The notes under the pieces are model-generated. The model had not been told where the DNA came from and ran no database searches. It saw nothing but the letters and a program-made list of their open reading frames with translations. A DNA stretch of 33,547 nt, from the NCBI GenBank assembly GCA_021734725.1, contig JAIPIM010000003.1, forward strand, positions 1-33,547, in the 5' to 3' direction. Position 1 is the first letter of the stretch. Each line of letters opens with the position of its first letter. The translations under genes were made by a program, and so were the position numbers. This DNA comes from Minisyncoccota bacterium (GTDB lineage Bacteria > Verrucomicrobiota > Lentisphaeria > Oligosphaerales > MVZH01). Positions 2,721 to 5,824 of the stretch are shown in pieces.

Positions 2721-5306
2721 ATGAAGTCTAAAATGACAATTCATGAACCTGCGGACGTAATCCCGTTCCTGAAACGCTGCGGCTACTCCCCCCGCAATAT
2801 CCGGCGGGATTATAGCTTCGGTGATTCGGCTCCCGTCCCGGTGGCGGCGTTTGCCCACGAGCCCTGCGATGCCCGAACAGCATGCATTGCAGTCACGGCA
2901 GGCGGAAACGATCCGGAGGCAACGGTGGCGGATCTCCGCAAGCTCGGGGCGCCGGTTGTATTCGTGGTTGGCCATCAGGAGTTTCAGTGGTGGCAGCCAG
3001 GCGCAGAAACCGACAAGCTTCGCCACTCGTATGCGTCGGCACAGGCAGTGAAAGAACTTGACGTGCATCGGGACAAATTGGGGCCGGAGCAACTTTTCCG
3101 GGCCAAGAATTTCGGACGGCAACATCCGAGCTATCAACTCGAGTTCGTTGATCTCGGCCTGTTGCCTTTCGCCGAGAACCAAATGGGAGATACGCTCAGC
3201 TCTCTGATCGAAGATGTCATACAAAGCGTTTGGCGGCAATTGCCGACGCAGAAGGATGAGGGGGCAAAATCCAGGCAATTCCGGAGCCTTTTCGAGACCC
3301 TTTTTCATGTCCTCGCCGGAAAAATCCTTCATGATAAAGAGGTTTCGGGATTCAAACAACTCGACACATCTGATGCCTTCCAGACAATCCAGCGTGTAAG
3401 ACGTCACTATGGCCAAAACCGGTCCCCGCTTGGCGTTGGGAGACTGCCGCAAGAGGTTTTGGTCGAACTGGCTCACCGCATTTCGCAGTTAAGCTCCTTG
3501 TCGAACCTAACAACGGAGACTCTCGGTGCCGTCTATGAGAAGACCCTGGTATCCAAGCAGAACCGTAAACTTTTGGGCATTCACAGCACACCCTCATACC
3601 TGATCGACTACATTGTGTGGGATCTGGTTGACTGGATCGCCGAGATACCCGCGGACCGTCGTCACGTTTATGAACCTTGTTGCGGCCATGCCGGTTTTCT
3701 TGTTGGCGCGATGCGGATGCTGCGGGACTTGTTACTTGGGGAAACACCCTCCATAGATGTAACTGAGCACGACTACCTTCGGGAGCACCTGCACGGGTTA
3801 GAGCTTGATCCGTTTGCCATGGAAATCGCCCGTCTGGGGCTTACTCTTGCCGACGTGCCGAATCCGAACGGCTGGAACTTGAGGCGCGACAACGTTTTTG
3901 CGGCGCAATGGCCCGGCCCCCGAGACCCGGTCCCCGGCATTGTTTTCATGAATCCCCCGTTCGAGAATTTCAAGAAACAGGATCGCGCGGAGTTAGCAAA
4001 CGCCTCGCTTGAGTATCGGAACAAAGCCGCGGAAATATTCTCCCGCCTTGTCAGGCGTCTGCAGCCCGGCGGCGTTTTCGGTGTGGTTCTACCCGAGACT
4101 CTACTTCACAACAAAGAAACCGCGTCGCTTCGGGAACGACTATGCACTGAATTCGAGTTGCGGGAGATCACCCTGTTCCCCGATAAAGTCTTCAATTTCT
4201 CGGACGCCGAATCCGCGGTGCTTCTCGGGCGCCGCAAGAAACCGAAAGCCAATACGGTCCGGGTCAACAGGGTGGACAACCGGGACCTGGATAGCTTCCG
4301 CAAACATCAGGCGCCGTCCGACCGACAGGAATGCTCGCAGCAACGGTTCCGGGAACAGCCCGGGTTTGACCTCAGAATTCCGAGGCTCGATGCCGTTTGG
4401 CAGGAGCTGGAGTACAAGCCGCGATTGAAATCAATCGTAGAAGGAGGGCAAGGTCTCACTTATGTGGCGGAGAAAGAACTTCCGGCGAAAGCCCATGCTG
4501 TAGCCGATCATCCATTCGAAGGTGCTGTGCCCGGTTTCACGAACCCGGGACGCAACGTGATGCTGCACCAACTCCCGCGTGAGCATCGGATGTCCTTGGA
4601 TCCAGAATTGATCGCCGCTCCCAGATGGGGAACCGCCATAGGGCAACCGCAGGTTCTTTTGAACTACGCCCCCGTAAGACGTGGCCCCTGGCGACTCAAA
4701 GCTTTGATTGATCGGGAAGGGCACGCGGTGACAAGCCGCTTCCTGGTTTTTCGGCCCACAGACAAGAGGATACCACTCGATTTCATTTGGGCATTGCTGA
4801 ACTCTCCGGTAGGCAACGCGTTTGCATATTGTCACTTAGGCAAGCGCGACAACCTCTCTGGGACTATGCTTAATATGCCTGTGCCGCGTATTACTGAAGA
4901 GGCCATGGCAGCAGTAACGTGGAAAGTCTGCGAGTACTTTGAAGCAGCAGCGGGGCGGGCGAATTCATTAAGAGCAGAAAGCGAACCAAAACAGCTTCAA
5001 GATTTGCTCCTGCGAATTGACGCCGAGATTCTGCGACTTTACAATCTCCCGCCACGATTAGAGCGGCAGGTTTTGGACCTCTTTCGCGGCCATGAGCGCG
5101 TAGGCGTACCCTTCGTTTTCACCGAGTATTTCCCGCCAGATTTCGGACCATTTATCCCTCTGCATGAGTATCTGTCCCCGGATTACAAACGGGCTACAGC
5201 CGGCGAGCTGCGCAAACGGCTTCGTTCCTTTGACGATCCAGACATTTCAAAAGCGCTGCAGATTGCATGTGAAGCATTCACGCTGGACGAGGAGAATCAA
5301 TCGTGA
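2721..5306 (+). CDS. Large N6-adenine DNA methyltransferase, Type IIG/Eco57I/HsdM-like (gamma class), with degenerate nuclease-like N-terminal domain and C-terminal TRD
   Basis: LGAVYE...GIHSTP (motif X), YEPCCGHAGFL (motif I), LHGLELD (motif II), FMNPPF (motif IV), GVVLPETLL, LRERL, and a TRD-like ALLNSP in the C-terminal third. Alternative start at ATG 2733. Confidence 0.88.
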   Translation: MKSKMTIHEPADVIPFLKRCGYSPRNIRRDYSFGDSAPVPVAAFAHEPCDARTACIAVTAGGNDPEATVADLRKLGAPVVFVVGHQEFQWWQPGAETDKLRHSYASAQAVKELDVHRDKLGPEQLFRAKNFGRQHPSYQLEFVDLGLLPFAENQMGDTLSSLIEDVIQSVWRQLPTQKDEGAKSRQFRSLFETLFHVLAGKILHDKEVSGFKQLDTSDAFQTIQRVRRHYGQNRSPLGVGRLPQEVLVELAHRISQLSSLSNLTTETLGAVYEKTLVSKQNRKLLGIHSTPSYLIDYIVWDLVDWIAEIPADRRHVYEPCCGHAGFLVGAMRMLRDLLLGETPSIDVTEHDYLREHLHGLELDPFAMEIARLGLTLADVPNPNGWNLRRDNVFAAQWPGPRDPVPGIVFMNPPFENFKKQDRAELANASLEYRNKAAEIFSRLVRRLQPGGVFGVVLPETLLHNKETASLRERLCTEFELREITLFPDKVFNFSDAESAVLLGRRKKPKANTVRVNRVDNRDLDSFRKHQAPSDRQECSQQRFREQPGFDLRIPRLDAVWQELEYKPRLKSIVEGGQGLTYVAEKELPAKAHAVADHPFEGAVPGFTNPGRNVMLHQLPREHRMSLDPELIAAPRWGTAIGQPQVLLNYAPVRRGPWRLKALIDREGHAVTSRFLVFRPTDKRIPLDFIWALLNSPVGNAFAYCHLGKRDNLSGTMLNMPVPRITEEAMAAVTWKVCEYFEAAAGRANSLRAESEPKQLQDLLLRIDAEILRLYNLPPRLERQVLDLFRGHERVGVPFVFTEYFPPDFGPFIPLHEYLSPDYKRATAGELRKRLRSFDDPDISKALQIACEAFTLDEENQS

Positions 5307-5824
5307 GGGGATGGCTGCTTGACACCAATATTCTGCGATCACTGACTGATCGTAAACATGAACACCATAATGCTGTTGCCGCCCGCCTGCAGGAAATACC
5401 CTCAACAGAGCCGGTGTATGTTTCTGCGGTAACCGCTGGGGAAGTCGAGTACGGCATCCGGTGCTACCCCAAGATGCCGTCGGAAAAGAAGCATCTATTG
5501 CGCTTTGTGCTGGACGATTTTCTCCTCCTAACGATCACGGAGAATACCAAAGCCCCATACGCTTCAATACGTGCCAAGCTCTTCGAAAACACAATCAAGA
5601 AGGGGAAGAAAGGCATGCGCCCTGAGCAGATCGTCGATCCGGTAACATCCCTCCGCCTGGGAGTGCAAGAGAATGATATCTGGATCACGGCCCAGGCGGT
5701 TGAGCGCGGCCTCACGCTGGTCACGCATGACAGGAAGATGCAGCGTTTGTGGGAAGCTGCAAATGGTGACTTGCGGGTGGCGGATTGGGGCGATCCTGAG
5801 TTTGCCTGGCCGGAGAATGGATAG
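5303..5824 (+). CDS. PIN-domain (VapC-like) nuclease
   Basis: WLLDTNIL, TAGEVEYG, QENDIWITAQA and LVTHD retain all four conserved acidic positions. The GTG start overlaps the MTase TGA (GTGA), with GAGGAG upstream. Confidence 0.9.
   Translation: MRGWLLDTNILRSLTDRKHEHHNAVAARLQEIPSTEPVYVSAVTAGEVEYGIRCYPKMPSEKKHLLRFVLDDFLLLTITENTKAPYASIRAKLFENTIKKGKKGMRPEQIVDPVTSLRLGVQENDIWITAQAVERGLTLVTHDRKMQRLWEAANGDLRVADWGDPEFAWPENG

Follow-up and report, generated by a model that had tools for sequence, protein, structure and literature searches.

The DNA considered here is a window of 33,547 nucleotides, spanning positions 1 to 33,547 of contig JAIPIM010000003.1 in a Minisyncoccota bacterium assembly (GCA_021734725.1; Verrucomicrobiota, order Oligosphaerales in the GTDB lineage), and the element in question is a pair of genes, encoding a large DNA methyltransferase (MTase) and a small PIN nuclease, nested in a Type III restriction-modification (RM) operon. 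Four co-directional open reading frames (ORFs) on the plus strand fill positions 602-8530. The first is the Type III mod gene (602-2620), encoding a DPPY-type N6/N4 MTase of 672 aa (PADLOC MTase_III 6.1e-178, Pfam N6_N4_Mtase 1.4e-33), and the last is res (5828-8530, in an ORF open from 5825), whose product of ~900 aa combines a helicase with a C-terminal endonuclease (PADLOC REase_III 1e-239, Pfam ResIII and RE_endonuc). The beta-class N6/N4 MTase and the SF2 helicase with C-terminal endonuclease that define a Type III RM system are therefore both encoded; the flanking genes are an intact Type III RM, and the inserted pair stands outside that family. A gap of 100 nt (2621-2720), containing GAGGAG at 2698-2703, separates mod from the N6-adenine MTase gene (P0002; 2721-5306, plus strand), which encodes 861 aa with an MmeI/Type IIG architecture, or 857 aa if the ATG at 2733 is used as in the database gene call. 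The PIN gene (P0003; 5303-5824, plus strand) starts with GTG and encodes a VapC-like protein of 173 aa (Pfam PIN 4.6e-14). A first-pass annotation had described mod and res as split by an 861-aa gamma-class N6-MTase and a 173-aa PIN protein whose genes overlap by GTGA; all four ORFs were recovered as described, as was the overlap, in which the PIN GTG occupies 5303-5305 and the MTase TGA 5304-5306. It had also let res start on the base after the PIN stop. The stop codon TAG (5822-5824) is indeed followed by a TTG at 5825, but the res start is likely the ATG at 5828, 3 nt past the TAG, since the family profiles align from ORF residue 2 and the MKLHF.. of the relatives lies opposite MHLQF.. of the window. 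A 15-nt repeat, GAGGAGAATCA(T/A)TCG, is found at 2698-2712 and again at 5289-5303 with 14/15 bases identical; it holds the GAGGAG Shine-Dalgarno sequence and precedes the start codons of both the MTase and the PIN gene, and may reflect either a common context for translation initiation or mere coincidence.

The large MTase has the domain order of the single-chain Type IIG/IIL (MmeI-like) enzymes, namely a nuclease fold, a helical spacer, an MTase domain with NPPF and a predicted TaqI_C-like target-recognition domain (TRD), in agreement with its earlier designation as IIG-like. Residues 2-143 (2724-3149) adopt a restriction-endonuclease-like fold, followed by a helical spacer at residues 155-261 (3183-3503) that resembles the N-terminal domain of HsdM and the helical domain of MmeI; the AlphaFold2 model of residues 1-261, built from an alignment of 73 sequences, reached a pLDDT of 94 and a pTM of 0.86. 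Since D50 is the sole universally conserved acid in the nuclease-fold core of the 73 sequences and no (D/E)XK motif is found in their core strands, the N-terminal nuclease domain is probably non-catalytic. The gamma-class N6-adenine MTase domain (residues 262-536; 3504-4328) matches Pfam N6_Mtase over residues 266-523 (6.2e-18) and carries NPPF at residues 411-414 (3951-3962) and motif I, EPxCG, at residues 318-322. Residues N411, P413, E318, P319 and G322 are invariant in the alignment, the motifs are kept in the distant branch of the family as well, and the N6-adenine MTase is, judged by these motifs, apparently active. Sequence matches to solved structures are confined to residues 263-536, with CamA (7lni, 1.7e-17) as the best match and Type I HsdM also among them, while MmeI_Mtase and Eco57I appear as sub-threshold Pfam matches. 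The following region (residues 537-800; 4329-5120), for which Pfam gives no match, was assigned through the ESM Atlas as a putative TRD resembling TaqI_C and BpuSI_TRD (TaqI_C features 0.97; TM by query 0.70-0.78 with TaqI_C-annotated parts). The protein ends in a tail at residues 805-855 (5133-5285) with the consensus ..LHEYLS.EY.RSTAG.LR....AL..A.EAF, for which the predicted interface and the matching of tails to partners described below point to a partner-specific role.

The PIN protein has the full VapC-type set of active-site acids, D7, E47, D125 and D143, of which the last three are invariant and D7 is at least 90% conserved in an alignment of 37 sequences; the first of these had been numbered D6, yet counted from the GTG it is residue 7. 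Its best NCBIfam match is a VapC model (9e-12; 45.4 bits, where the cut-off is 140), and all of its NCBIfam matches are VapC RNase toxins, each below the respective cut-off. A conserved basic insert, located at residues ~95-122 (nt ~5585-5668) directly before the ENDLW catalytic strand, has the consensus KYAP..KR.K.LRPEQLVDP.TS.ELGIQ and lies outside the generic VapC profiles; it could be a substrate-binding element. The PIN profile collects 146 clusters at 50% identity (E<=1e-30), and the best 150 representatives of the family span 95-214 aa. As the first-pass annotation had remarked, no VapB-like gene precedes the PIN gene, which holds for a separate gene; the gene upstream is that of the 861-aa MTase itself. 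The only small ORF upstream of the PIN gene encodes 52 aa in an alternative frame inside the 3' end of the MTase gene (5164-5322). It has no Pfam match, and an ORF of at least 40 aa is found at this place in only 30/42 loci, so that, lacking both a family and a conserved open frame, it was rejected as a separate antitoxin and regarded as a shadow of the MTase frame. Fused MTase-PIN proteins were not found at E<=1e-10 among 1081 candidates in a PIN search for longer proteins, which is weak evidence.

Relatives of the large MTase are numerous: of 8000 candidates, 1031 scored E<=0.001. Those listed, 120 in number, cover 78-100% of the query at 41-100% identity, and their source records call them only "N-6 DNA methylase," "SAM-dependent DNA methyltransferase," a subunit of a Type I methylase or a hypothetical protein. 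The gene neighborhood was surveyed in two sets of loci, all of them on contigs of metagenome-assembled genomes (MAGs), metagenome contigs or annotated plasmids, and downstream genes were assigned by mechanical ORF calls and phmmer/BLAST clustering. The genome set derives from a scan of one genome per species, which yielded 287 MTase relatives, of which the best 80 were studied; these come mostly from Planctomycetota and Acidobacteriota MAGs, and the survey covers relatives beyond the nearest kin P0007-P0014 (48-81% identical to the window MTase). The gene starting at most a few bases from the MTase stop codon encodes a member of the PIN family of the window in 41/80 loci and a protein of ~200 aa in 38/80, whereas in the remaining locus (L038) the flank of 204 nt leaves the partner unreadable. 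The ~200-aa partner is an HNH nuclease (Pfam HNH 2.2e-7; 31.4 bits against a cut-off of 21.4) with an invariant CxxC...H...N...CxxCN pattern, and its nearest relative is PtuB, the Septu/retron effector (PADLOC 8.8e-12; NCBIfam PtuB 3.9e-5, well under the family cut-offs). No conserved third gene surrounds the pair in the 80 genome loci. The association is also seen from the side of the nuclease: a reverse search with the PIN profile (E<=1e-12) found matches in 6/401 genomes from the phylum of locus L009 (Planctomycetota), and in 6/6 a member of the MTase family, 30-45% identical, lies directly upstream. Co-occurrence of MTase homologues with this PIN family, on which the proposal of a two-gene module had depended, is thus borne out in both directions and is far above what chance would give. 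In the order of the window the MTase is present in 1/75 genomes, with no match at E<=1e-30 in the 74 others, a patchy presence that fits horizontal acquisition.

The second, distant set comprises the best 80 of 535 relatives from a metagenome scan seeded with a protein of Rhizobium sp. Q54, together with 3 plasmid loci. The PIN family of the window is again the most frequent downstream partner (53/83), followed by an MBL-fold protein of ~330-360 aa (13/83; Lactamase_B 3.6e-10), 4 copies of which are short (119-186 aa). Minor partners are a RES toxin (3/83), HNH (1/83), PIN_3 (1/83; 2.9e-7) and a weakly matching PIN (1/83; 0.01). In 8/83 loci the contig breaks off at the MTase end or no more than 25 nt from it, so that no downstream ORF is left, in 2/83 the flank is short (366 and 260 nt) with nothing recognizable, and 1/83 (L191) has a truncated MTase and no recognizable partner. 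The three plasmid loci were identified by tblastn in cultured Rhizobiaceae and encode distant members with 28-30% identity over 90-94% of the query. On pAtA74a_a of Agrobacterium tumefaciens A74a and pSchITTGS70c of Sinorhizobium chiapasense an "N-6 DNA methylase" (828 aa) is followed by a "PIN domain-containing protein," and on plasmid 8 of Rhizobium sp. Q54 an MTase of 945 aa is followed by a RES-domain protein (Pfam RES 1.5e-16). The pSchITTGS70c module adjoins transposases. Taken with the surveys, this indicates that the MTase-PIN pair is an autonomous, horizontally mobile two-gene module. Carriage by phages was not observed, since no MTase match was obtained in 50,697 phage records and 36 pattern matches in IMG/VR contained 0 relatives. 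On pAtA74a_a (L109:505-3971, 7145-7960) the module has neighbors of defence type, namely a DEAD/DEAH helicase, a 165-aa hypothetical protein overlapping the MTase start and a gene with a Shedu SduA domain, and on Rhizobium Q54 plasmid 8 (L110:388-3393) the gene upstream of the MTase is annotated as "restriction endonuclease BseRI." Decayed copies occur as well: at L035:3090-3633 and L075:10474-10707 the MTase is intact and the PIN is reduced to pieces of 77-79 aa, while at L078:1884-4445 the MTase is split and the PIN gene is whole, and these may be pseudogenes or assembly errors.

The exchange of partners is mirrored in the C-terminal tail of the MTase. PIN-linked MTases show an identity of 0.39-0.51 to HNH-linked ones across the four core domains, which drops to 0.15 in residues 805-855, whereas within each group it amounts to 0.39-0.63 in the core domains and to 0.45 and 0.46 in the tail. 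When the last 70 residues of 152 MTases with at least 770 aa, drawn from 164 loci including the window, were clustered, the three large tail clusters paired solely with PIN (91), HNH (38) or MBL (12) proteins, in 141/141 cases and with zero cross pairs. A tree of the core (FastTree only; MTase residues 40-800, 80 rows, tail left out) places the HNH-linked MTases within the PIN-linked ones, which are paraphyletic, and the PIN/HNH label requires 3 changes on it, at least 2 of which are forced by well-supported branches. The swap between PIN and HNH, as read from this tree, has accordingly occurred more than once, although not many times. The RES-linked MTases provide a separate line of evidence. 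In the Xre/MbcA/ParS antitoxins, the cognate antitoxins of RES toxins, the C-terminal domain PF09722 binds the toxin. The last ~50 residues of the three RES-linked MTases L110, L123 and L168 match this family in 3/3 cases (1.5e-4, 0.012 and 0.0023, respectively), and the proteins encoded downstream are RES proteins (1.5e-16, 1.9e-14 and 1.1e-18). Each match is sub-threshold on its own, but three of them in the expected position, to the one family that a fused antitoxin would call for, can hardly be coincidental. Together, the co-variation and the RES-linked tails support in silico the view that the MTase tail is a partner-specific binding element.

The same element forms the predicted interface with the PIN protein of the window. 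A complex prediction that paired residues 530-861 of the MTase (43-row alignment) with the PIN protein (37-row alignment) gave an ipSAE of 0.83 (0.84, 0.83 and 0.83 in the individual runs), whereas none of three controls exceeded 0.19. In the calibration of the tool this mark is reached by 58/80 solved complexes and by 2/110 mismatched pairs, a comparison that is rough because custom alignments were used here. The runs share at least 94% of the contacts, with a partner pLDDT of at least 84. On the MTase, the interface comprises residues 775-779, 805-812 and 821-855, that is, the swapped tail and a conserved helix just before it, and on the PIN protein it includes residues 8-9, 47-48, 124-125 and 143, located at or beside the catalytic D7, E47, D125 and D143. 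The tail of the window MTase is thereby predicted to cover the PIN active site in the manner in which VapB lies over VapC. The first-pass annotation had supposed that the MTase restrains the PIN protein; the tail placed over the active site, the joint swapping of tail and partner and the antitoxin-like matches of the RES-linked tails lend this supposition in silico support.

On this evidence the large protein is probably an RM-derived MTase with a fused antitoxin that restrains swappable toxins; that the MTase acts as the antitoxin is supported in silico by the observation that tail and downstream effector swap together across the family. Such a protein would descend from the single-chain Type IIG/IIL (MmeI-like) enzymes and would have kept their nuclease fold while losing the (D/E)XK motif, and its tail of ~50 residues would bind the product of the next gene, which is the VapC-like PIN protein in the window. 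The effector set exchanged along with the tail would comprise PIN, HNH, an MBL-fold hydrolase, a RES toxin targeting NAD, and PIN_3. VapC-type PIN proteins are toxins with RNase activity, those of the RES type act on NAD+ or on NAD-dependent targets, and HNH and MBL proteins are nucleases, so that the common denominator of the partners is a toxic effector rather than a DNA-cutting subunit. Since a full, apparently active and sequence-reading MTase has been kept across phyla, its methylation function probably matters to the control of the effector. This leads to a more far-reaching scheme, which we put forward only tentatively, of a methylation-gated abortive defence, in which the MTase, having lost its nuclease, methylates self DNA, reads the methylation state at its target sites and releases the polymorphic toxin (PIN, HNH, MBL or RES) bound to its tail. 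The MTase would then be the sensor too, and the effector would stay masked as long as the MTase rests on fully methylated host DNA. Release could be triggered by unmethylated foreign DNA, by a phage anti-restriction factor, by loss of S-adenosylmethionine (SAM) or when the MTase is no longer made, and the freed effector would then cause growth arrest or abortive infection, with RNA as the presumable target of the PIN protein.

Several observations weigh against these proposals. The trigger and the substrate of the PIN protein are purely inferred. The number of independent swaps is small (at least 2-3), and thus shared ancestry explains part of the co-variation of tail and partner, and both 80-locus sets consist of top-scoring matches rather than random samples. 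At 22.1, 16.1 and 18.3 bits, all of the PF09722 matches fall short of the gathering score of 24.5, and the ipSAE of the predicted complex may reflect likeness to solved VapBC complexes instead of true binding of this pair. Furthermore, a defence-island signal is absent from the 80 genome loci, whose nearest neighbors are mostly housekeeping genes: among the 143 nearest neighbor ORFs, scanned as 139 plus the 4 longest, the top Pfam family was MerR_1 with 3/139. Finally, a restriction subunit that cuts DNA would explain the HNH and MBL partners, and the presumed loss of nuclease activity in cis, as well as a toxin does.

The last point is the core of the main alternative, in which the module is a split Type IIG RM system, so that the PIN, HNH or MBL protein borne on the tail is a restriction subunit acting in trans, replaces the dead nuclease and cuts unmethylated DNA near the recognition site. 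The domain order is that of MmeI, BpuSI and DrdV, the catalytic motifs of the MTase are invariant, replacement of a cis nuclease without (D/E)XK by a tethered one would be economical, and HNH (Pfam 2.2e-7) and MBL (3.6e-10) proteins are typical DNases; if this were true, the window would encode the first PIN-fold restriction nuclease. We nevertheless consider it unlikely, because the RES partners are not nucleases and the tails linked to them resemble an antitoxin domain, because the PIN protein is VapC-like and its NCBIfam matches, albeit below the cut-offs, are solely VapC RNase toxins, and because a tail predicted to lie over the PIN active site is the arrangement of an inhibited enzyme. 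The lack of fused MTase-PIN proteins in the search described above speaks in the same direction, as weak evidence.

Restraint of a toxin by the MTase tail would also be expected if the pair served pure addiction, such that an orphan epigenetic MTase is stabilized by a linked toxin that outlives it upon loss of the genes and kills the cell, with neither phage defence nor sensing involved. The solitary two-gene units amid housekeeping genes, lacking both a conserved third gene and a defence island, are consistent with this, as are the patchy distribution (1/75 genomes in the order of the window), the occurrence on plasmids beside transposases and a layout typical of toxin-antitoxin (TA) loci, in which the antitoxin part is encoded upstream, the genes overlap and the toxins belong to known TA families (PIN, RES). 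Addiction alone, however, leaves unexplained why a carrier of 800 aa with a conserved putative TRD, invariant MTase motifs and a retained nuclease fold should be kept across phyla for the sake of a 50-residue antitoxin. Moreover, the embedding of the pair in an RM operon in the window and the Shedu SduA neighbor on pAtA74a_a both accord with the reading that Payne et al. (2024) call "guilt by embedding." Addiction without defence is therefore a rather improbable account of the module.

The position of the pair between mod and res can be compared with other loci of both kinds. No relative of res was found beside the module in the 80 genome loci or the 83 distant loci, and a mod-like gene is present near it in only 1/80 genome loci, where the match is weak and on the opposite strand, and in 2/83 distant loci. 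In the latter two, a Mod-like beta-class MTase is encoded on the same strand at the 3' end of the PIN gene (L157:6019-6783 and L170:4181-5929), overlapping the PIN ORF by ~17 nt in L157 and beginning 37 nt after it in L170; the phmmer E-values to the mod of the window are 2.3e-20 and 3.2e-22, respectively, and no res was found beside either gene. Conversely, three related Type III loci from the order of the window have mod and res on the same stretch, and each is split by one inserted gene, which abuts or overlaps the start of res. The insert is a YhcG/DUF1016 PDDEXK nuclease at L104:2205-3290 and, on the minus strand, at L105:3518-4573 (YhcG_C 3e-55 and 3.4e-63), and a RhuM-family protein at L107:687-1721 (2.9e-108). 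The mod-res gap of this operon type looks like a recurrent cargo hot spot, and, since the gap of the relatives holds unrelated cargo, the place of the module points to use of this hot spot and not to functional dependence. Genes embedded in other defence operons are a pattern described by Payne et al. (2024; bioRxiv 10.1101/2024.01.29.577857), which the insertion in the window matches. At a further locus (L108:4529-5808; G013:C88) fragments of mod (residues 8-96 with 65% identity and 643-672 with 80%) and of res (residues 804-899 with 70%) are found with their middles missing, which looks like a decayed Type III RM system.

PrrC within EcoprrI is a precedent for a nuclease masked by an RM system. 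That the pair likewise monitors the flanking Mod and Res proteins and fires the PIN nuclease when phage anti-restriction proteins inhibit this enzyme, as the first-pass annotation had offered, is suggested by its nesting exactly between mod and res, with the res ATG 3 nt past the PIN stop, and by the same logic having been proposed for antitoxin-less vapC/hicA genes beside RM genes by Wilbanks et al. (2022; PMC9296519), but must be regarded as highly improbable, given that a res relative lies beside the module in 0/80 and 0/83 loci, that mod-like genes are limited to 1/80 and 2/83, that the predicted partner of the PIN protein is the tail of its own MTase and that the same gap carries unrelated cargo in the relatives.

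The remainder of the window is ordinary chromosome, with a heptosyltransferase fragment upstream of the operon and, on the minus strand, genes for an AI-2E transporter, an RdgC-like protein, UvrB, a CysNC-like protein and others. Antisense to the MTase and res genes lie long ORFs of 256, 435 and 305 aa (minus strand; 2706-3476, 5891-7198 and 7601-8518), which overlap them and are probably shadow ORFs of GC-rich coding sequence. Scans of 400-8800 returned 4 promoter-like sites, where 4.6 are expected by shuffling, and 7 terminator-like sites, where 10.0 are expected, so that neither exceeds expectation, and a repeat search found no direct repeats flanking the MTase-PIN insertion.

Whether RM and TA components interact directly was posed as a question in the PIN-superfamily survey of Matelska et al. 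(2017; PMC5499597). According to these authors, nobody had by then demonstrated such an interaction, nor a PIN nuclease serving as a restriction module, and they observed no PIN genes in the surroundings of Type II RM systems. In a single genome, Wilbanks et al. (2022; PMC9296519) noticed vapC/hicA genes that lack an antitoxin and adjoin RM genes, and they suggested that these act in the manner of PrrC. A full-text search of the literature, within the searchable article text, found no published description of the MTase family, the tail code or the effector set. The module is thus apparently a hybrid of TA/abortive infection and RM for which no prior description was found. If the MTase is indeed the antitoxin, a modification enzyme on an RM scaffold would itself physically serve as antitoxin to exchangeable toxins, uniting two textbook systems in one protein, and would give a testable answer to the question raised by Matelska et al. 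(2017). It would also account for a group of PIN and RES genes that seem to lack an antitoxin, and for a group of ~850-aa proteins annotated as "N-6 DNA methylase"; annotation pipelines now treat the two genes of the pair separately, one as an orphan MTase and the other as a stray PIN protein. If methylation gates the effector as well, the modules would form a large cross-phylum family of restriction-derived immune sensors that couple the self/non-self discrimination of RM systems to abortive infection, and would represent a new class of RM/TA hybrid. The one-to-one code between tail and effector is a ready system for studying swaps of toxin-binding specificity.

Among the known systems, BREX and MADS are clearly separate, since the window MTase scores far under the cut-offs of NCBIfam BREX-2 PglX (33.6 against 400 bits) and MAD2 (27 against 720), and BREX and DISARM are further set apart by the lack of PglZ, BrxC and drm genes among the window ORFs examined. 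No PADLOC model matches the PIN protein, and the MTase has only generic MTase matches, the best being a partial Type I MTase match (1.3e-26) among the best 25 of 33 families. The first-pass annotation had not recognized the pair as a named system, and it matches none in PADLOC or NCBIfam. With Septu PtuAB, Lamassu and PARIS the module shares the plan of a conserved large protein combined with polymorphic effectors, and its HNH partner is nearest to PtuB, but the conserved part is a DNA MTase here and not an ABC/SMC ATPase, and there are no matches of family rank. The Type IIG/IIL enzymes MmeI, BpuSI and DrdV have the same order of nuclease fold, helical spacer, gamma-class N6-MTase with NPPF and, as far as the window MTase is predicted to have one, TaqI_C/BpuSI-type TRD, while the window MTase differs in having no conserved (D/E)XK, a partner-specific tail and an obligatory small effector gene downstream, and its sequence similarity to them is confined to the MTase domain. 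As for PrrC-EcoprrI and the antitoxin-less vapC/hicA genes (PMC9296519), the common features are an RNase-type toxin without an antitoxin of its own and the proposed masking by RM-type proteins. Here, however, a dedicated MTase with a presumed toxin-binding tail forms a cross-phylum unit with an exchangeable effector, and an adjacent RM system is dispensable for the association. The likeness to VapBC lies in a VapC-like PIN protein with four conserved acids, in a putative inhibitory element encoded upstream by a gene overlapping that of the toxin, and, if the prediction holds, in a C-terminal tail that lies over the active site. The window pair differs in that a separate VapB or other small DNA-binding antitoxin is absent and the tail is carried by an 861-aa DNA MTase, and in that its PIN protein has the basic insert (~95-122) and scores 45.4 against 140 bits. 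A parallel to such a fusion is found in three relatives of the window module rather than in the window itself, where a RES protein is encoded downstream and the MTase C-terminus matches PF09722 (sub-threshold), as in the Xre-RES systems MbcTA and ParST, and the Xre helix-turn-helix (HTH) part of the antitoxin is replaced by a whole MTase.

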